A stretch of DNA of 39,429 nt, taken from IMG/VR virus record IMGVR_UViG_2529292726_000015, positions 1 through 39,429 of that record. The stretch is one strand, 5' to 3'. Below are positions 6,036 through 39,236 of this stretch, piece by piece. Position 1 is the first letter of the stretch, and every line of letters begins with the position of its first letter. The notes beneath the pieces are model-generated. The model ran no database searches, was not told the DNA's origin, and saw only the letters and a list, made by a program, of their open reading frames with translations. The stretch comes from a virus (Duplodnaviria; Heunggongvirae; Uroviricota; Caudoviricetes). Made by a program: the position numbers and the translations under genes.

Positions 6036-6110
6036 GGGTAACTCCTTATATTTGATTGCATAACGAAAACGCCTCAAGTGAAGCGTTATTGGTATGCGGT
6101 AAAGCCGCGC

Positions 6111-6479
6111 TCAGGCGGCTTTGATAGTCATATCATCTGAATCAAATATTCCTGATGTATCGATATCGGTAATTCTTATTCCTTCGCTACCATCCATTGG
6201 AGGCCATCCTTCCTGACCATTTCCATCATTCCAGTCGAACTCACACACAACACCATATGCATTTAAGTCGCTTGAAATTGCTATAAGCAGAGCATGTTGC
6301 GCCAGCATGATTAATACAGCATTTAATACAGAGCCGTGTTTATTGAGTCGGTATTCAGAGTCTGACCAGAAATTATTAATCTGGTGAAGTTTTTCCTCTG
6401 TCATTACGTCATGGTCGATTTCAATTTCTATTGATGCTTTCCAGTCGTAATCAATGATGTATTTTTTGATGTTTGACAT
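6111..6479 (-). CDS. Hypothetical PL-operon protein (122 aa)
   Basis: Intact ORF in the leftward early operon between N and cIII; no recognised family. Confidence 0.5.
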   Translation of the reverse strand: MSNIKKYIIDYDWKASIEIEIDHDVMTEEKLHQINNFWSDSEYRLNKHGSVLNAVLIMLAQHALLIAISSDLNAYGVVCEFDWNDGNGQEGWPPMDGSEGIRITDIDTSGIFDSDDMTIKAA

Positions 6480-6504
6480 CTATTCATATCCTCATAGATA
6501 AAAA

Positions 6505-6532
6505 ATCGCCCTCACACTGGAGGGCAAAGAAG
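6505..6532 (-). terminator. Rho-independent terminator (minus strand) within PL operon
   Basis: Minus-strand stem GCCCTC-CAGTGT-GAGGGC followed by GATTTTTTATC. Confidence 0.45.
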
Positions 6533-6629
6533 ATTTCCAATAATCAGAACAAGTCGGCTCCTGTTTAGTTACGAGCGACATTGCTCCGTGTATTCACTCG
6601 TTGGAATGAATACACAGTGCTTATTCGTA

Positions 6630-7100
6630 CTAATAAAACACCCAGTTTTCTGTTTCTTGGTTGTGTCCAAAGTTATATTCAATATCTGGTGTTGATGTAT
6701 CAATATCCTTCATCCCATCAACAAGAGTTGATACAACAGCCAAATCTTGTTTGATTCTCATTAAATGGTATTTCTTCCGGCGCAATAAACTCTCAATGGC
6801 AAGTTTCTTCGTTGGGAATGCAAAAGATCTTTCTGCATTTTTTGCTACTTTCTTAATTGCATATCTATTTCTCTTTTGTTTCCATTCCTGTAACCACTGA
6901 TTTGGTGCTGGTTTAAAATTAACAATCCAATGCGCAGGAACCAACCATGCATAATGCTCTGTCTGATGAAAAGCTATATATTGAAGTGCGAATATTTTGA
7001 TTCCATCTTCTTCAACTGTCGCCTGGAATCTCCAGAAAACAGGCATTCCATCATGTTCAGTTTCTGATTCAGGAAAAGGTACGCTCCATGATATTGTCAT
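6630..7100 (-). CDS. Hypothetical PL-operon protein (156 aa)
   Basis: Intact ORF immediately downstream of N; AT-rich; no recognised family. Confidence 0.5.
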   Translation of the reverse strand: MTISWSVPFPESETEHDGMPVFWRFQATVEEDGIKIFALQYIAFHQTEHYAWLVPAHWIVNFKPAPNQWLQEWKQKRNRYAIKKVAKNAERSFAFPTKKLAIESLLRRKKYHLMRIKQDLAVVSTLVDGMKDIDTSTPDIEYNFGHNQETENWVFY

Positions 7101-29428: not shown

Positions 29429-30814
29429 ATGGCTACGTGGCAACAGGGTATTAATTCTGGTGGTTTTCTGGCTGGAATTGGTGCGCAAAATGAGAATGCG
29501 CCAAAGGCAAGCGACATTAACGCAACGCTTGGTCTGATCCGCGAAAACAATGAACTGGCTCAATCAGGTGCAAATAACGTTGGTCTGACCGCGTTACGTG
29601 GTCTGGCTGGAGTTGCTGATATTTATAAGCAGGACCAGCAACAGAAAGCGATTAATGCGTTCAATAAGGTTCATGCTGATGCATGGGCTTCTGGTGATCC
29701 ATCGGGACTATTTAAGTTTGCCAAGGAAAATCCAGCGTTTGTTGCGCAGGCACAACAGGCATTTTCCGGTCTTAATGAGCAGCAACGCAACGATATGGGC
29801 GATTTAGCCATGAGGGCTAACGTCGCTCTTTCTCAGGGACCGGAAGCCTACAGTAAATTCATTACTGACAACAAGGACAGGTTAAATCGCGTGGGGGCGA
29901 ATGCTGATTGGATGATTCAGACAGGTATCCAGAATCCAGAGCAGCTATCACACATGCTGACTACTATGTCTCTCGGTGCGCTTGGACCAGAAAAGGCGTT
30001 TGCTGTTCAGGATAAGATGGTTGGTCGCCAGCAGGAGCAGCAAAGAATTAACGAAACCATTCGCAATAATGACATGACGAATGCGAGGGCTATTAGGGGG
30101 CAAAACCTTTCCTATCAGTCTGCAATGACCGGACACGGACTTGCAGCAGAAAGACTGGCACTTGATAAGCAGAAATTCGGTTTTGAAGTACAACAGGCAC
30201 AAAAGAAGGCCGAGGAACTTATTAATGCTGCGCCAAAATTATCAGTGAACATGGAAAAGGCTATAGAAAAATCAGCAGGTGATGCGGCAGCTAGTCGTAA
30301 TGCTGCCGATTCAATGACAACGCTCGCTGACACGCTGGAGAAGGAGAAGCCAACTCCTGGTTTGTTCGGTAACGCTGAAAATATGTTCTCTAAGCTTACG
30401 GGGCAAGATAACTACCTCCGAGATGTGCGGATTAGATTCAACCAACTAGCCAATGCGCAGGCAACCAAGCTTCTCCCTCCCGGCCCTGCATCAGATAAGG
30501 ATATTGAGTTTGCAAGGAAAGGCATTCCAAGCGAAACGGATAATCCAATGGTTATGGCTCGATGGTTAAGGGGTATGGCAAAAATGGAAAGTAATAACGC
30601 GAAATTCAACGAGTTTAGGTCAGAGTGGATGAGTGCAAACGGCAGCCCAGGACAATCTGATCGCAACCGAAACATCATGGGGATGGATGTTAAGAAGGGT
30701 GAATCATTGAACTCTGCGGCAAAACGTTTTCTTTCCTCAAGTTATGGCGATAGCCAACCTCAACAGCAATTGTCCGATGACGAATTAATTAGCAAATATC
30801 TCGGAGGGCAGTAA
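29429..30814 (+). CDS. 20: Ejection protein (P22 gp20-like)
   Basis: 461 aa; position and composition as P22 gp20. Confidence 0.8.
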
Positions 30815-32640
30815 TGGCTTATAGTCGTGAACAATTGATGACGGCGTTAAGGAATGCTGATGCTGCTGGTGATACTGAGGGAGCACGTCGCATTGCTCAG
30901 ATGCTGTCTTCTGGTGATCAATCCACTCAAAACCAATCGCAGCCAGAAGAACAATCTCTGGTAGGAAAAGCTACTGACTGGCTCACTGGTGGTCAAAGTG
31001 CAGGGCAAATTGCTGAACAGGCTGGTCGTGGTCTGGTAAACATACCATTTGACGTATTGCAGGGTGGTGCAAGTCTGATTAATGCAATCAGCCAGGGGCT
31101 TGGTGGCCCAAAGGTTTTGGATGATGTTTATCGTCCAGTAGACAGACCGACAGACCCCTACGCTCAAGCTGGAGAAACAATTGGCGGGTATTTAGTTCCA
31201 GGAGTTGGAACGGCAGGAAGCATGGCTATTGGATCACTGGCAGAAGCCGCAAATCAGAAAGGCGATTTCGCGCAAAATGCAGCAAGAAACGCCGGAGTTA
31301 ACCTTGCCGCTCAGGGGGTTCTTTCCGCAGCAGCAAAGGGAATAGGGCGTGGAATAACGGCTATAAAAGGTGATATTGCGCCAGAAGTGGCGAAGAAAAT
31401 TGCCACATCAGAATCGATGGGCGTGACACCAATGACATCTGATGTTATCCCGCCGAAAAATGCTTTCACTCGCGGCCTTACTCAGGATGCCGAGGGGGCT
31501 TTGCTCGGGACAGGCTCAAAGCGAGCTGAGCAATATGCAACGCGTAGTAAGCTGGTAAGTAATTATTTTGACCGTTTTGGTGAGTACAACCCTGATGATG
31601 TGGTGAAATCTCTGACCACCACGTTAAGGGGGCGGAAGGATGCCGCTGGCGCTGTTATCAATGACGTCACCAATAAAATGGGTAATGCCGCAGTTGATAC
31701 CACAAATACCATGAATGCTCTGAATACAGCGATCGCAAGACAGGAACGGCTTGGGACGTCTGCCAATCAAAGCCTGCTTACATCCTTGCGTAACCTACGT
31801 GAAGAATTAGCAAACCCTGCAACTGATTTGGATGTTACGTTTGATCTCTTGCGTCAGCACAGAACAGCATTTAGATCTAATGTTCAGGGAGATGCTATGG
31901 TCTTCCCCAACCAGGCAAAAGCAGCTACCAATATGGTAGAGAATGCAATGTCAAAAGACCTTCGTAACGCAGTTGCTAAAAACCTCGGTGCATCAGACGC
32001 AGCAAAATACCTTAAAGCAAATTCCGATTATGCAAACGTTTATAATAAGGTGCTTAATAAAAACATTGCTAACAAGCTCAACAAGGCAAGCAGTGAAGCC
32101 AGTCCTGAACTTATAAATACCGTTGTATTAAGCAGAAAACCATCTGACGTTAAACGAATCTGGAGCGCATTGGATGATAATGGGAAAGATGCTATGCGTG
32201 CAGCTTACGTCAGCAAAATAGCGGAAAAGGCCGGGGACTCTCCAGCCAAGTTCATCACTGAAGTTAATAAGCTGAAATCTCAGTCAGGCGGTGAAATTTA
32301 CAACACTATTTTTTCTGGAAAGCACATGAAAGAGCTTGATGCTCTTCATGAAGTTCTACAGCAAACAGCAAGGTCAGACACCGCAAATGTAGTAACTCAG
32401 ACGGGGCAATCGCAAGCCAACAGGATAAGGACGATTGGCGCAACTGCGACTCTTGGGGCAACACTGGCGCTTGAATCTGGTTTCGGTGCAATGATGCGCT
32501 TGTATGAATCCAAAGCCGCAAGGAATGCGCTCTTACGTCTGGCAAACACTAAAGCTGGAACGCCAGCCTATGAAAGAGCGCTGAATAACGCCGCAAATGC
32601 CATCAGACCAATACTTGCCAATGATGCAACTGATCGCTAA
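30814..32640 (+). CDS. 16: Ejection protein (P22 gp16-like)
   Basis: 608 aa; position and length as P22 gp16. Confidence 0.8.
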
Positions 32641-32661
32641 GGGTTGATGTCATGGATGTTG

Positions 32662-33300
32662 TTAATTGCGAATGGAATCGCGGAACTCTTTACTTGATAG
32701 AAAAGGATCTGTTCTCCTTAACTCATCATAGTTTTTATTAAACTTTCTTGCTTCACCAGGGTATCTGTTGAACAAAACATTGCAGAAAAAAGAGAGCAAT
32801 AACTCACATATGAATGCTAATATCCTGAAAAATAAAGGTATAAAAAGAAGGAAAGGTTCATTGAAGTCTCTATTCCAAACAAAATAGACAATCATCCCGA
32901 CATACCAAATTGATATCCCTATACTGATGATTGTTCCAACAGAGGTAACTACGATCCCGATTAAGTCGGACAGTCTGTTTGCCAGTAACTCATTTGAGTA
33001 TCTTGCAATCATATACCGCCAACATTTTGCAATATCATCCTGATCTGTAGAGTCTTCTGGAATGGCTAGGCTTCTACATATTGAAGCAGCTCTTTTTTTC
33101 TCAACTCTTTTTGAGAGCCATCCATTAAAGAGATACATCAACACCTGCGTTGCTATTCCTGCACCAAGTGATATCAAAGACATCCCCAAAAATCGCCACC
33201 CTGGAGATAGTGACTGGTACTGCCAAACAAAAAAAATTAAAAAACCTAATGATCCTATGACATAGGCTGATGTATCGCTATATATATCTATTTTTTTCAT
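32662..33300 (-). CDS. Polytopic inner-membrane protein; superinfection-exclusion (SieA-like) candidate by position
   Basis: 212 aa with several hydrophobic segments; strongly AT-rich; opposite strand to virion genes; sits where P22 carries sieA. Confidence 0.5.
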   Translation of the reverse strand: MKKIDIYSDTSAYVIGSLGFLIFFVWQYQSLSPGWRFLGMSLISLGAGIATQVLMYLFNGWLSKRVEKKRAASICRSLAIPEDSTDQDDIAKCWRYMIARYSNELLANRLSDLIGIVVTSVGTIISIGISIWYVGMIVYFVWNRDFNEPFLLFIPLFFRILAFICELLLSFFCNVLFNRYPGEARKFNKNYDELRRTDPFLSSKEFRDSIRN

Positions 33301-33678
33301 TGAGTAGCCACTCCTTAGTTTTGAGCAGGATACCAGATGATACTGTATTGGTGGAGTGGTGTGTGAAAACGTGTCAACGACAAACCATCCACAACTTGGA
33401 CGAATGATTTAGCAAAAAGTGCTATTTTTGGTGTTTAGTGTCATAGAAAAGTGAATAGCTCACTTTTCAACATTGCATGAAACTTGCAGGAAATGTGACA
33501 TTACCTTATAGGTAACTTCGGCGAAAATGCAGTAAATGTGAAACGTAATGGTTTAAACATGTCGCTAAAGTGGTTGTAAGTTAGCCTCCGAAGGATTGCT
33601 GATAGCTTTGTTATAGTATTAAATGACATTTGACATAGTTGGATACTTAGCTGTGGCTATCAAGATGGAGGTGTGTTC

Positions 33679-34122
33679 ATGCTTACTTGTTTTGATGTCG
33701 CCGACTACTTCCTGTCGCGGTGTGACGAGGATAGCGGTGACACAATCTCTAATTTAAAATTACAAAAGCTTGTTTACTATGCTCAGGGTTTTTCATTGGC
33801 GTTGCTTGGCGAGCCTCTTTTTCAGAATAAGATGGAAGCTTGGATGCATGGCCCTGTTGTCCCTGAGCTTTATCGCCGTTATAAACAATATGGTAATGGC
33901 GCTATCCCTTCTCCAGAGTCTTTTGATGCTGAAAAATTCAGCGAAGAACAGTTAGAGCTATTAGAAGAAGTCTGGGATGTTTTTGGGCAATTTTCTGCCT
34001 GGAAACTGAGGAACATGACACACGAAGAGTCACCATGGAGATCAAACTATATTGAGGGTGTTGGTGGTTCTGAAATTAGCTCTAAGGAGATGGCAGAGTA
34101 CTTTGCAACTCGGATTAACTAA
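33679..34122 (+). CDS. Panacea (DUF4065)-domain protein, putative antitoxin-type component
   Basis: LKLQKLVYYAQGFSLALLGEPLF...EAWMHGPVVPELYRRYKQYG matches the Panacea/DUF4065 signature as recalled; ATG at 33679 preceded by GGAGGTG. Confidence 0.65.
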   Translation: MLTCFDVADYFLSRCDEDSGDTISNLKLQKLVYYAQGFSLALLGEPLFQNKMEAWMHGPVVPELYRRYKQYGNGAIPSPESFDAEKFSEEQLELLEEVWDVFGQFSAWKLRNMTHEESPWRSNYIEGVGGSEISSKEMAEYFATRIN

Positions 34123-34126
34123 CGAG

Positions 34127-34546
34127 ATGGCAAGAAAATCTAAAAGGATTATCCCCCCTGCTGAATCTACAGGTAAGTTAAAGTTAGGGCCGCAGTCAGG
34201 GGGGAATTCAGATCAAAAGAAACCGAAATTTTCATTCTGTTACATCCAAAGCTCTCACTGCATAACGAAATGCCAAAAAGATGAGAAAGCTGGCTTAGCT
34301 GATAAATTATACAGATTAAGTCAACTAACATGGGCAGAGATTAAGCAGCAAGGTAGGCATAAGCTTGGATTTGAGAAGATTGCAAGGGGTGCGATTAAAG
34401 CAGGTATCCCCAGTCATATAACGGAAGACGTAGATCATTTCTTGGCTTTTAGATTTGATGATTTGAAAGCCATGGTTGGTTATCGTCTTGGATCGACATT
34501 TTTTGTTATATGGCTTGATAGAGAGTTCAACCTATACAAGCACTAA
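34127..34546 (+). CDS. Unrecognised 139-aa protein immediately downstream of the Panacea gene (candidate toxin/effector partner)
   Basis: ATG 5 nt after the Panacea stop; basic N-terminus (MARKSKRIIPP...); no family recognised. Confidence 0.45.
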   Translation: MARKSKRIIPPAESTGKLKLGPQSGGNSDQKKPKFSFCYIQSSHCITKCQKDEKAGLADKLYRLSQLTWAEIKQQGRHKLGFEKIARGAIKAGIPSHITEDVDHFLAFRFDDLKAMVGYRLGSTFFVIWLDREFNLYKH

Positions 34547-34547
34547 T

Positions 34548-34575
34548 AAAACCCACCGTCAGGTGGGTTTTTTAT
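34548..34575. terminator. Bidirectional rho-independent terminator between convergent genes
   Basis: Stem AAACCCACC-GTCAG-GTGGGTTT flanked by A-run on the left and T-run on the right. Confidence 0.6.
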
Positions 34576-34598
34576 AAGGAGTAATCATGATTTACCCA

Positions 34599-35135
34599 TC
34601 AAACAACCCACCAGTTTGCCTGATTGGATGCCAGCCTTGCAGTTTTTATGGAATTAATTATGCCATGCTCAAGAGCCTTGTTAGCATCCAAAATGGTCGA
34701 GTCTGCTATCAGGGATGCCCACCTAATATGGGTTCCGATGTCGATATTGAACGTCTCAACGAAGCGATCAAGATCGTTATCGAGGCATTTCCCGTACTCT
34801 CTCAATCTGGCATGGTCGGCGGCTGGGGTGGCAAAGCCCCATAATAGAGGATGTAACAGGAATCTTGATAATGGGTTTGCGAAACGTTCTGAGCCAGCCA
34901 GGAAAACGATATTAGCTATGGACTCAACATTGCTTATGTTGTGAGTTCTAACGGTAACAGGGAGTGACTTAAGAAAGTTATACGCAGTAAAACCAGCGGC
35001 AGTTTCCCCTCCCTGACTTGATATATGGATATTTAATTCAGTTGCGCCTTGAGATAATGCGGTGAGACAGTGGTTCTGAAGTTGCCCAACAGTGGCGGTG
35101 TTAACGGGGCATAAGAAATGAATTGTGTGCAGCAT
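34599..35135 (-). CDS. ClpP-like (S14/ClpP-crotonase fold) serine protease homolog
   Basis: IHISSQGGETAAGFTAYNFL...ISNVESIANIVFLAGSERFANPLSRFLLHPL aligns by eye with E. coli ClpP (YINSPGG...CMGQAASMGAFLL...MIHQP), including candidate Ser and His; ATGA overlap with mnt stop. Confidence 0.6.
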   Translation of the reverse strand: MLHTIHFLCPVNTATVGQLQNHCLTALSQGATELNIHISSQGGETAAGFTAYNFLKSLPVTVRTHNISNVESIANIVFLAGSERFANPLSRFLLHPLLWGFATPAADHARLREYGKCLDNDLDRFVETFNIDIGTHIRWASLIADSTILDANKALEHGIINSIKTARLASNQANWWVV

Positions 35136-35383
35136 TATTTATCATCCTTACCATACATGGTTTTCAGCGTCTCCAGCAGCGCCTCTTTGAATTTGTCAGC
35201 TTCTTGCTGAGCAAATGACTCAACTGACTTTGGCGACCTATCTTCATCAATCGCGGCTTGCAAAATCATGACGATCTCGGAGTTAACAGAGCGACCATTT
35301 TTTGATGCTCTAACAGCAAGAGCCTCGCGCAAAGATTCAGGGATTCTTACCGTAGTTGGAGAAATTGACACACCCTTTGCCAT
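35135..35383 (-). CDS. mnt: Mnt-like ribbon-helix-helix repressor
   Basis: 82 aa; N-terminal RHH region with NGRSVNSEI resembling P22 Mnt/Arc (ANGRSMNSEL); divergent from arc-ant. Confidence 0.75.
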   Translation of the reverse strand: MAKGVSISPTTVRIPESLREALAVRASKNGRSVNSEIVMILQAAIDEDRSPKSVESFAQQEADKFKEALLETLKTMYGKDDK

Positions 35384-35497
35384 ATCACACCTTTGGTATT
35401 CAATTTGATATCAAAGTGTATGCAAAAAAATTTTGACTAGATATACTCACTTTGCTATCTTTTGTATTCGAAAAGAGTTGTTTGCGTGGAGGGTAAC
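35384..35497. promoter_or_regulatory. Divergent Pmnt/Pant promoter-operator region
   Basis: TTGACT element and partial palindrome TAGATA...TATCT between divergent mnt and arc. Confidence 0.4.
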
Positions 35498-35650
35498 ATG
35501 GAGAAAGAAATAAGTAAGATTTTGGTAAGGATGCCGCAGTCGTTAAAGGATGCTATCGGTAGCAGGGCAAAGGAAGAGTGCAGGTCGTTTAACTCAGAGG
35601 TTATCAAGCGCCTGATAGACAGCCTGAAGAGAGAGGGGGTAACGGTGTGA
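35498..35650 (+). CDS. arc: Arc-like ribbon-helix-helix repressor
   Basis: MEKEISKILVRMPQSLKDAIGSRAKEECRSFNSEVIKRLIDSLKREG resembles P22 Arc; GGAGGG RBS before ATG. Confidence 0.7.
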   Translation: MEKEISKILVRMPQSLKDAIGSRAKEECRSFNSEVIKRLIDSLKREGVTV

Positions 35651-35882
35651 TTCGCTTGGATGCAGTAGTCAAAGAGATTGCGATTACCATTTTAAGACCA
35701 AATTTTGTTCATGGCGAATCATTTGGCACGAACGAAAAATTGAGAAGAGAAAGAGTATTCAGTGGCAAGCGCACGTTTTCAGAAGTGATGCTTGATGCGG
35801 CAAAGAAATCAAAACAGTGAAGCCCCAACTGCTGGAACAGTCAGGGCTTCGGTTGTCGGTAAATCCGTGGAGAAAAACCAAC

Positions 35883-36785
35883 ATGAATAGTATAGCAATT
35901 TTAGAAGCAGTGAACACCTCTTACGTGCCATTCAACGGTCAGCAAATTATCACCGCCATGGCTGCCGGAGTTGCATATGTTGCGATGAAGCCAATCGTTG
36001 AAAACCTCGGAATGAGCTGGTCAACGCAGCAAACAAAACTCATGAAGCAGATTAGCAAATTCAACTGTGTTCATATGAACATGGTTGCCGCTGATGGTAA
36101 GCTTCGTAAGCTACTCTGCCTTCCTTTGAAGAAGTTAAATGGATGGCTGTTCAGCATCAACCCTGAGAAAGTTCGTGCTGACATCCGCGATAAACTGATT
36201 CAGTACCAGGAAGAATGCTTTACTGTGCTGCATGACTACTGGACAAAGGGAGAGGCAGCAAATGCACGGAAGAAAACATCTGTTGATGACAGGACTCCGC
36301 TTCGTGATGCTGTAAATATGCTAGTCAGCAAAAAGCATCTAATGTACCCAGAAGCTTATGCAATGATTCATCAGCGTTTCAATGTGGAAAGTATTGAAGA
36401 GCTTGATGCATCTCAGATACCACAAGCAGTAGAGTACATCCACAGGGTAGTGCTTGAAGGTGAGTTCATCGGCAAACAAGAGAAGAAAACCAACGAGCTT
36501 TCTGCAAAAGAAGCAAACAGCCTTGTATGGCTATGGGATTATGCCAACCGCTCACAGGCATTATTCCGCGAACTGTATCCGGCGCTGAAACAAATTCAAT
36601 CGAACTATTCCGGCAGATGCTACGACTACGGTCATGAGTTCTCGTATGTTATCGGAATGGCGAGAGACGTTTTAATCAATCACACACGAGATGTTGATAT
36701 TAATGAGCCAGACGGACCAACGAATCTTTCCGCATGGATGAGACTTAAGAATAAAGAATTACCTCCTTCAGTACATAACTACTGA
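35883..36785 (+). CDS. ant: Antirepressor Ant
   Basis: [46 protein letters not shown]... matches P22 Ant; the ORF-track start at 35817 is an extension. Confidence 0.85.
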
Positions 36786-36802
36786 CAGATAACCAACGCG
36801 AC

Positions 36803-36828
36803 AACCCAGCTTCGGCTGGGTTTTTTTA
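36803..36828 (+). terminator. Rho-independent terminator after ant
   Basis: Stem ACCCAGC-TTCG-GCTGGGT followed by a T7 run. Confidence 0.7.
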
Positions 36829-36886
36829 TGCCCAAAATTCACCGTAGCCACGCTGCGGCGATTCCTTGTATCTGGAGCAAATTAAA

Positions 36887-38599
36887 ATGACAGATTCAAT
36901 AAATGCCAATGTTGTAGTGAGTATGCCTTCGCAACTCTTCACTATGGCACGTTCTTTTAAAGCCGTAGCCAATGGTAAAATTTATATCGGAAAAATTGAC
37001 ACTGATCCGGTAAATCCTGAAAACCAGATTCAGGTTTATGTGGAGAACGAAGACGGTTCTCACGTTCCTGTTTCGCAACCAATCATCATTAACGCTGCTG
37101 GTTATCCGGTATATAACGGACAGATTGCCAAGTTCGTAACTGTGCAAGGCCATTCTATGGCTGTTTATGATGCGTATGGTGCACAGCAGTTCTATTTTCC
37201 TAATGTGCTGAAGTATGACCCTGATCAGTTACGCCGAGAGCTTGCAGGAGATAATGGTTCAAATCTGGTTGGTGGTCTTCCGTTTGATTCTATGTATGGA
37301 GATCTCTCTACTACTGAAGATAACACAATGTCTATAAATGAACGTCTAAATTGGAGTAGAAAAACAGGTAAGACAGTAGAGCTTCCAGCAGGAAGGTTTA
37401 AAGTAAGCGGAGAGCTTGAACTTGGCGGTGTTAAGTTGAGAGGTAGATCTATAGGTTTTCGTAATAGTGACGGTACGGTACTTGTAGGTGTTGGGCAAGA
37501 TAGACTATTTAATCAATCTGAAAGTACATTTCCTTATTTCGCTTCCACAAAACTTGAAAGTTTACGCATTGAAAATGTTATATGCGGAATAGAATTTGGT
37601 TATCTGAATAGAGCTGAGTTTGAAGATATACATATAAAATGTACTGGTACAGGAGTGAGATTTGGGCGCGCTGGAAATGCGGGACCACAATGGAATATTA
37701 TGCGCAGATGTACAGTGGAAAGTATTGGTGGAAGCGCGATATACATGAATGGAGCAGAGTGGTGTAATAACAACACTTTTGAGCTTTGTTTCTTTGAAAG
37801 CAAGGAAAACGCAGATATACCAGCAGTGGTTATCGATTGTGCTGGAGGGTTTGGGGCAATTGATAACATTTTTATTGGGACAGAAATAGCATCTGAAGGA
37901 TATGGTGTTAGGCTGAAAAACGCTAAGGCAACTCATTTTTTTGGTGCATACTTAGAATGCTATGGGCCATCAATTTGGTTAAATGGCACATCTCTTGGAA
38001 CAAAAGTTGCCGGTGGGGTATTTGCAAGACAACGAAATAACAATGCCACTGGCATTAATTGGGCAATATATCATGAGTCTGGTAATGCATCTATTGAGAT
38101 TGATAAACCTTATGTTGTTGTGTCAAGCCCAATAAGTCAGAATGGGTGTGGCTTTATTGGATATAAAGGAGAAAGTCCGGCGTCTGGCTTGGTGGTGGAT
38201 ATAACATCAGACCCTCACACTGAAAATATCGGGGGTGTTGCATATACAAGATACAAGGATGGATTATTTAGTAAAACAACTAAAATTGTTCATGGAGATC
38301 AAATAATTCAATCAAATTCATCTCCATCACTTTCTCTTCAGCACGAAGATGGCACAAAAAAGGTTGAAATATATAGCAACTCATTAAAAGATGGGGAAGA
38401 TTTTGGTGCCACGCTTAAGGTGAATGATATATCAAGAATGCAATTCACAGCCGATGGTAAGAAAATATTACTTCCTGGACAAACTCTTGGTGTTAAAGCT
38501 GAGGAAAATACTGATACATCAGGCATTAAAACCCATAGGGTTCAACTACTTAATGAGTCAGGGGCGCATCTTGGATATATTCACGTATTCTCAAAATGA
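36887..38599 (+). CDS. 9: Tailspike protein: P22 gp9-like head-binding N-domain fused to a divergent receptor-binding/enzymatic C-domain
   Basis: N-terminal ~115 aa ([44 protein letters not shown]...VLKYDPDQ) match P22 gp9; remainder does not resemble P22; ORF-track start at 36866 is TTG. Confidence 0.85.
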
Positions 38600-39236
38600 T
38601 TCCTTGTTTTTAATATGTTTAATTTTTTATTAAGAGAACGCTCATAATTCTGTGCCACGTTAAAAAATCATTACAACGTAATCGCTTTATCGAGGCGGAC
38701 TCCAAAATAAATCGCCAACTGGGACAATATCAAATTCCAGGTCTGGATCGTCATTGTCCATTTTTCCTTCGCATCGAAGGGTTGGAACATGTGTCATTCC
38801 TTTTTGATTGCATATTACTGGAATGACACAGAATTTCTAACACACCATTTATTAATGGTTAACTTTATGAGTTATCACTATAAAAATATAAATAGGAGCC
38901 ACATGCGTTTAATATAATTATAATTATAGATGTTATCAATTCTGTTTTTATTATATAAAAAGTTAATAATTTATAATATATAGTTTACATTACTAATTAG
39001 ATAATTCTTCACTACTTGATCAAGTGTTTTTCCCAAAGCAGAATTGTTTATGACAAAACTGAGACACACAAAGCTTTGCACTGGATTGCAAGGCTTTGTG
39101 CTATCTGAGATATAGCAATGCTGGTTGCTACACCTTTTCATCAAGCCAGTCCGCCCACCACTGCATCATTTCTCTGCGCTTATCGAGATACTGAGCATGG
39201 TTGTAAATTCAGCTACCCCAGTGTGTTGACAAAAAA

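Follow-up and report, generated by a model that had tools for sequence, protein, structure and literature searches.

A very probable type B allele of the superinfection-exclusion gene sieA in a P22-like Escherichia coli phage or prophage, and the exchangeable position it occupies

SieA proteins and other prophage-encoded blocks to DNA entry

The superinfection-exclusion protein SieA of phage P22 is an inner-membrane protein, as established by fractionation of P22 SieA only, and it blocks DNA injection by P22-like phages, an effect measured for P22 SieA, with other phage types being unaffected. A single chromosomal copy of the gene together with 85 bp of upstream DNA is enough for exclusion, and hybrids carrying HK620 ejection proteins partially escape from P22 SieA. 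In the published view, SieA most likely disturbs the assembly or the working of the conduit that is built from the ejected proteins gp20 and gp16, and an alternative, the masking by SieA of a host factor in the inner membrane, for instance YajC, has been kept open (PMC10883804). Three sequence types of SieA are distinguished, among which type B has a ~30-aa N-terminal extension with one more predicted transmembrane (TM) helix (PMC10883804), and a FxRYPxEAxxFNK motif has been defined for all types (Leavitt et al. 2024, mBio; PMC10883804). The type B protein EcHS_A0321, encoded by prophage HS1 of E. coli HS, provides full exclusion of P22, L, MG40, MG178 and LP7, and a single chromosomal copy on its own, with 106 bp of upstream DNA, has the same exclusion spectrum as P22 SieA (PMC10883804). 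Type C SieA, found in Providencia, Morganella and Proteus prophages, belongs to the same family and likewise has an N-terminal extension with an extra helix (PMC10883804).

Prophage-expressed membrane proteins that block DNA entry are also known from other phages and include HK97 gp15, Sie2009 of the Lactococcus phage Tuc2009 and Ltp of the Streptococcus phage TP-J34 (PMC10883804). All three are overcome by changed DNA-conduit proteins of the incoming phage (PMC10883804). They have no sequence kinship to SieA, and they target long-tailed phages via the tape-measure protein rather than podoviruses via their ejection proteins.

Identity and predicted topology of the gene product

The window, as the term is used here, is the whole 39,429-nucleotide stretch analysed (IMG/VR record IMGVR_UViG_2529292726_000015), and the minus-strand gene considered below is very probably a type B allele of the superinfection-exclusion gene sieA, carried by a P22-like (Lederbergvirus-type) E. 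coli phage or prophage (Table 1). The initial annotation had described a 212-aa polytopic membrane protein in a markedly AT-rich segment directly after gene 16, at the site where P22 carries sieA, and these points were corroborated. The ATG-started ORF is convergent with the gene 16 homologue, the two stop codons lying 21 bp apart, and has a GC content of 36.3%, whereas the window has 46.8% and gene 16 has 47.4%; a GC content as low as this occurs in just 1.7% of 639-bp segments. The position is the one that characterises the SieA family, i.e. between the homologues of genes 16 and 9, adjoining gene 16 on the opposite strand, and the gene lies upstream of mnt/arc/sar/ant and the tailspike gene.

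The window protein matched the PHROG 7745 family, ‘superinfection exclusion SieA-like’ (E = 1.7e-20), and BLASTP against P22 SieA (NC_002371 13336-13830) returned 41 identical residues over 148 (28%, E = 2e-24), aligning aa 44-191 of the window protein with aa 14-159 of P22 SieA, so that the similarity spans the three core helices. A tblastn search of 50,697 phage records with the window protein matched 38 records, all of them P22-type sieA at 27% identity; no close relative was found among these records, and a phage genome with this sieA would therefore be unusual among sequenced phages. In contrast to P22 SieA, the window type of gene is found in E. coli prophages rather than in Salmonella phages; a search of 5,426 complete E. 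coli genomes detected it in 21, with nucleotide identities of 95-100%. The gene of E. coli H22 is 100% identical, its RefSeq product name being hypothetical protein. The window protein shares 52-98% identity with 12 type B homologues from E. coli, Salmonella, Yersinia and Serratia, and residues F177, N178, R179, Y180, P181, E183, A184, F187, N188 and K189 of the family motif, which reads FNRYPGEARKFNK in the window protein, are invariant across the 12 proteins. Judged from these comparisons, the 52-98% conservation of the family across Salmonella, Yersinia and Serratia shows selection acting on the protein.

The closest described protein is HS1 SieA (EcHS_A0321 / ECHS_RS01600, WP_000717773.1), which also has 212 residues, of which 208 are identical in the window protein; the DNA is 97.8% identical over the gene and ~46 bp upstream. 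ECHS_RS01600 is a minus-strand gene situated directly after a gene 16 homologue that is 99% identical to that of the window, and it is the sole sieA-like gene at this place in prophage HS1, so the two elements share the same slot. The window sieA is thus already known, since its product shares 98% identity with a protein characterised by experiment. The four substitutions, from the window protein to HS1 SieA, are L62I, A72T, F150S and I159V. Beyond approximately -46 the HS1 upstream sequence is unrelated to that of the window, and the neighbour of sieA is a helix-turn-helix (HTH)-domain gene in HS1 but a Panacea toxin-antitoxin module in the window.

With P22 SieA (type A, 164 aa, NP_059639), the window protein shares a homologous three-helix core, a cytoplasmic loop and the FxRYPxEAxxFNK motif, and the two genes share low GC, a convergent position 21-22 bp after gene 16 and a leader ending in GGTATCCTGCNCAAAACTAAGGAG. 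The window protein differs in having a ~30-aa N-terminal extension with a fourth helix and a C-terminal tail that is ~16 aa longer. Assignment to type B is indicated by 98% identity to HS1 SieA as compared with 28% to P22 SieA. Type C is described as having a ~40-aa N-terminal extension and ~10 extra C-terminal residues, and as occurring in other genera (PMC10883804); the near-identity of the window protein to HS1 SieA places it in type B. Taken as a whole, the sequence features looked for in a SieA protein (homology, motif, three core TM helices, position and type B features) were all found.

Kyte-Doolittle analysis of the window protein gave three strong hydrophobic stretches at aa 37-58, 110-142 (peak 2.26) and 146-178 (peak 2.42), and a weaker, sub-threshold one at about aa 9-26 (mean ~1.2, computed by hand). 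An AlphaFold2 model built with the 12 homologues (mean pLDDT 77) has helices at residues 9-26, 33-77, 87-101, 105-142, 149-177, 181-197 and 204-211. On the basis of the hydropathy stretches and the modelled helices, the window protein is polytopic, with four predicted membrane helices; the three core TM helices expected of the SieA family are present in both analyses. The N-terminal extension of type B has moderate support, since the P22 alignment pairs aa 44 with aa 14 and AlphaFold2 places a helix at 9-26, the hydropathy of which is sub-threshold. The first eight residues, MKKIDIYS, contain two lysines, and there are 10 lysine and arginine residues in loop 59-112 and nine in tail 170-212, counts that, by the positive-inside rule, fit a cytoplasmic location of this loop and tail. 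From this rule and the AlphaFold2 model, a four-helix topology with both termini inside is predicted, in which both ends, the ~50-residue loop and the ~35-residue tail bearing the motif would be cytoplasmic and only two loops of ~6 residues (27-32 and 143-148) would be periplasmic. A Foldseek search of the model against the PDB and BFVD gave no match with E < 1, and hence no structural analogue and no clue to the mechanism.

Table 1. Features of the sieA region and of the ejection-protein genes; positions are those of the window.
Feature	Position	Strand	Basis
Gene 20 homologue (ejection protein)	29429..30814	+	N-terminal third 91% identical to P22 gp20
Gene 16 homologue (ejection protein), 608 aa	30814..32640	+	72% identical to P22 gp16, 99% to HS1 gp16
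Weak terminator-like hairpin ~95 nt past the sieA stop, antisense within the 3' end of gene 16	32552..32569	-	Pattern scan only
sieA (type B) CDS, 212 aa	32662..33300	-	ORF; matches to PHROG 7745, P22 SieA and HS1 SieA
SieA family motif FxRYPxEAxxFNK = FNRYPGEARKFNK, aa 177-189, predicted cytoplasmic	32734..32772	-	Read from translation
Predicted membrane helix 4, aa 149-177	32770..32856	-	Hydropathy 146-178; AlphaFold2 149-177
Predicted membrane helix 3, aa 110-142	32875..32973	-	Hydropathy 110-142; AlphaFold2 105-142
Predicted membrane helix 2, aa 33-58, equivalent to P22 SieA TM1	33127..33204	-	Hydropathy 37-58; AlphaFold2 33-77; aligns with P22 residues 14 onward
Predicted extra N-terminal membrane helix, aa 9-26; type B/C SieA trait, absent from P22 SieA	33223..33276	-	AlphaFold2 and hydropathy
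Conserved 24-nt leader GGTATCCTGCTCAAAACTAAGGAG, with Shine-Dalgarno AAGGAG (33311-33316) 10 nt before the ATG	33311..33334	-	Sequence comparison
Candidate extended -10 (b), TGGTATCCT (inference only)	33327..33335	-	Leader contexts
Candidate PsieA (a): TTCACA (33367-33362)-19 nt-TATCAT (33342-33337), 10/12 consensus	33337..33367	-	Relaxed scan
Remaining AT-rich spacer, co-inherited with the Panacea module rather than sieA	33347..33678		~99% identity to phages and prophages lacking this sieA
Terminator-like hairpin just upstream of the candidate promoter	33385..33403	-	Pattern scan only

Probable exclusion function and expression of the window allele

The exclusion or membrane-defence function that the initial annotation had proposed is supported, as far as sequence comparison goes, by the homology to P22 SieA (28% identity) and the 98% identity to HS1 SieA, and because of the latter the window allele would be expected to have the same exclusion function as HS1 SieA. 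Four helices were predicted and no homology to a structural or lysis protein was seen, the two points on which that annotation had staked its reading. If the predicted topology is right, contact between SieA and the conduit would be possible only inside the membrane or on its cytoplasmic side, which points, speculatively, to the membrane-associated gp16 rather than the periplasmic gp20 as the direct partner. The gp16 of the window has G531, corresponding to P22 G532, and A545 where P22 has P546, and is of the P22 type, a type excluded by both SieA classes; a lysogen is therefore expected to exclude phages like itself. The C-terminal third of gp20 is 28% identical to that of P22 and 99% identical to that of HS1, and thus represents a different mosaic module. 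Mapping of the published gp20 escape positions (T338, T341, A348 and G350) was unreliable, this C-terminal module being 28% identical to P22 and gapped at these positions.

A SieA-family protein with a specificity or role unlike that of the HS1 and P22 proteins, directed at another set of phages or at a host membrane factor, is very unlikely. There are four substitutions relative to HS1 SieA, the recognition by SieA of very divergent gp16 and gp20 proteins is unexplained and the YajC host-factor model remains in the literature (PMC10883804), and the predicted, almost entirely cytoplasmic location of the non-membrane mass would be a poor fit to direct contact with periplasmic gp20. However, all four substitutions (positions 62, 72, 150 and 159) fall at sites that vary among the 12 type B proteins, and types A and B, at 24-28% identity, have indistinguishable exclusion spectra (PMC10883804), which makes a changed spectrum unlikely at 98% identity.

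The initial annotation had seen the 370-bp AT-rich spacer to the right of the gene as rich in promoters, a view that holds for its composition and for its -35-like elements but not for complete promoters. The spacer extends over 33301-33678 up to the annotated ATG of the Panacea gene and has 38.4% GC between 33301 and 33672. It contains two exact TTGACA hexamers, at 33372-33377 (minus) and 33630-33635 (plus), and nine hexamers within one mismatch of TTGACA, about twice the 4.5 ± 2.1 of shuffled sequences; nine or more occur in ~4% of shuffles and 1.3% of other segments, so the number is mildly above chance. A standard -35/-10 scan of 32500-33800, allowing only 16-18 nt between the two elements, gave one site against 4.5 expected, located inside the ORF on the plus strand, and none in the spacer. 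A relaxed scan with 15-19 nt spacing gave candidates only just upstream of the sieA ORF on the minus strand and no promoter candidate on the plus strand. Neither exact TTGACA could be accepted as a -35 element: the minus-strand copy is separated from TATCAT by 29 nt and from TACAGT by 24 nt, both distances being too long, and the plus-strand copy has no acceptable -10 at 15-19 nt. Rfam models searched over 32500-36900 left the spacer empty, the only matches being the sar RNA, located farther to the right, and two sroH fragments at chance level.

Most of this spacer belongs to the neighbouring module rather than to sieA. To the right of about position 33347, it shares ~99% identity with Salmonella phage Emek, Escherichia phage phiv205-1 and many E. 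coli prophages, each of which has the Panacea module and lacks this sieA, and it is unrelated to the HS1 sequence upstream of sieA. The leader just upstream of the gene is common to P22 sieA, phiv205-1 and E. coli 14EC017, with HS1 differing at two positions. Identity to HS1 ends ~46 bp upstream of the ATG and identity to phiv205-1 begins at 33311 and extends rightward, so that the overlap between the two, from 33311 to ~33346, corresponds to the leader ending in TATCATCTGGTATCCTGCTCAAAACTAAGGAG, which P22 sieA shares from GGTATCC onward.

Two candidate promoters were recognised here. Candidate (a) was missed by the standard scan because its spacing is 19 nt and 16-18 nt were allowed; the same 19-nt spacing is seen in the putative P22 PsieA, TTGGTA-19-TTTCAT (read from NC_002371), and its TATCAT is present in HS1 too. 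Candidate (b) is an extended -10 in which the GGTATCCT part was fixed by the search pattern; the T before GGTATCCT is 100% conserved in 85 unique leader contexts, which have no common -35. HS1 has CGGTGTTCT at this site, and yet the 106-bp HS1 upstream fragment sufficed for exclusion (PMC10883804), which favours candidate (a) over (b) for type B. Both candidates would be weak, in keeping with the low sieA transcription reported in lysogens (PMC10883804). The expression signals of sieA likely lie within ~70 bp of the ATG, and the gene would be expressed from its own weak promoter in this interval, independently of the virion operon. The hairpin upstream of candidate (a) could insulate sieA from leftward read-through.

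It is highly improbable that the gene is an intact but silent relic, in which the sieA cassette was joined to a foreign upstream region and ceased to be expressed in the lysogen. The origin of the upstream sequence beyond about -46 in a different module and the lack of a canonical sigma-70 site in the standard scan would be compatible with such a relic, but the -10-like TATCAT, the leader and the Shine-Dalgarno sequence have all been kept, the same upstream sequence fronts a different, intact cargo ORF in phiv205-1 and at least 11 other contigs, and the ORF is intact and shows 98-100% conservation in the 21 E. coli genomes.

Domain libraries contributed little to the identification as sieA. 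Scans of the window protein against Pfam, NCBIfam and PADLOC returned nothing usable, SieA being absent from these libraries, and the sole Pfam entry listed, DUF3918 (E = 0.052), did not reach the cutoff. A precomputed match to PF26849.1 exists for all 12 close homologues, and the copy of Pfam-A that was searched matched neither these 12 proteins nor P22 SieA nor the window protein, PF26849 apparently being missing from this copy. Although small polytopic, AT-rich phage membrane ORFs are often holins or of unknown function, and no Pfam, NCBIfam or PADLOC family was matched, the reading as an unrelated membrane protein, be it a structural protein, a generic moron, or a lysis protein such as a holin, is refuted by the specific SieA homology and near-identity to the tested HS1 SieA, by the lack of any lysis or structural family match and by a location outside the lysis cassette.

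Cassette exchange and a possible multi-cargo slot

The region between genes 16 and 9 is a known hypervariable ‘ant moron’ (Villafane et al. 2008, PMC2629481). In phiv205-1, whose flanks are 98.5% identical to those of the window, the interval from the end of gene 16 to the leader is occupied by another ORF, which encodes 62 aa with two helices, and the same sieA is found beside an HTH-domain gene in E. coli HS and a LexA-family gene in H22. On these comparisons, sieA would have arrived by the swapping of a cassette, with the 3' end of gene 16 on one side and the shared leader on the other as the conserved flanks. The horizontal acquisition suggested in the initial annotation is hence supported in the form of cassette exchange among P22-like phages.

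The pattern GGTATCCTGCNCAAAACTAAGGAG was found in at least 119 IMG/VR viral contigs, and the ORFs starting 6-13 nt after it fall into at least 13 unrelated clusters, with SieA types A and B together forming one of them. Cluster sizes refer to the ORFs among the matches listed from these contigs, and on this count the cargo includes a 129-aa secreted protein (n at least 21), two distinct clusters of single-pass coiled-coil proteins of ~109 aa (n at least 19 and at least 13), a 161-aa lipoprotein (n at least 16), the 62-aa protein (n at least 12), SieA types A and B (n at least 9) and at least seven smaller clusters. The types of cargo are secreted proteins, one lipoprotein, membrane proteins with one to four passes and one soluble protein. 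At nearly all usable loci listed, the cargo ORF faces a convergent long ORF whose end lies -4 to 91 nt from the cargo stop, and this long ORF usually has the conserved N-terminal region of gp16. The signal common to the slot combines TGGTATCCT, which is invariant, with the leader CAAAACTAAGGAG and, in most cases, a GTTGGYGTG that leads into a GTG start. Matches of the other cargo families in PHROGs are of ‘unknown function’, and no Pfam match was obtained for them.

It is conceivable, if at present a tentative proposal, that the sieA position is a general plug-in slot, in which the leader fronts interchangeable envelope proteins, expressed from the prophage, which protect the lysogen by blocking injection or in some other way. 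No description of a shared slot expression signal was found in a non-exhaustive search of the literature. There is little new in the sieA gene itself, and the potential for novelty is limited to this multi-cargo slot.

Among the slot genes, the 134-aa protein of E. coli 14EC017 was considered as another SieA type and rejected, there being no BLASTP similarity. For this gene (CR536_RS07920, L005 2665-3069), the RefSeq start is upstream of the leader and the Shine-Dalgarno sequence and is probably over-extended; translation likely begins at the GTG that follows AAGGAGGTTGGT, yielding a single-pass protein of 109 aa.

Several further features were observed in the surroundings of sieA. To its right lies a two-gene module on the plus strand (33679-34546), comprising a gene with a Panacea/SocA-like antitoxin domain (Pfam E = 1.9e-24; RefSeq start ATG 33679) and a partner of 139 aa (phrog_8366, with a weak PADLOC NsnC match of 5.9e-6), which together are probably a toxin-antitoxin or defence pair; the module is also present in Emek, phiv205-1 and many E. 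coli prophages. The minus-strand pair at 34599-35383, convergent with the Panacea module, consists of a 178-aa ClpP-like protease gene (Pfam E = 4.3e-12), here outside the head-gene cluster, and an 82-aa Mnt/Arc-type ribbon-helix-helix gene, the two overlapping by one base. Since SocA of Caulobacter is a ClpXP adaptor, the pairing of the Panacea protein with the phage ClpP-like gene may be functional. A sar antisense RNA is found at 35816-35882 on the minus strand (Rfam RF00262, 83.9 bits, E = 2.6e-17), overlapping the start of the ant-like ORF, and together with arc (35462-35650) it indicates a complete P22-type immI region. Other low-GC patches occur in the window at 6051-6700 and 37000-38800, going down to 0.32-0.39, and the latter overlaps the 3' part of ORF 36866-38599, at the expected position of the tailspike gene. 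Type B sieA is also carried, at 98.6% identity, by two E. coli ‘plasmids’ of ~39.9 kb (NZ_CP146561.1 and NZ_CP146567.1), which resemble genomes of P22-like phages that were assembled into circular replicons.

As regards annotation, the protein identical to that of the window is WP_023145941.1, and both this entry and its HS1 counterpart are named ‘hypothetical protein’ in RefSeq; the window gene and these entries can be annotated as type B sieA. A lysogen with this element is expected to be resistant to P22-like phages and also to their generalized transducing particles, and such resistance bears on E. coli phage typing, phage therapy and transduction. If the proposal of a plug-in slot is true, sieA would belong to a far larger set of interchangeable genes, and the shared leader would be both an expression signal and a recombination joint. 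The slot, with at least 13 uncharacterised envelope-protein cargo families behind one leader, provides a concrete list of candidate exclusion and defence genes.
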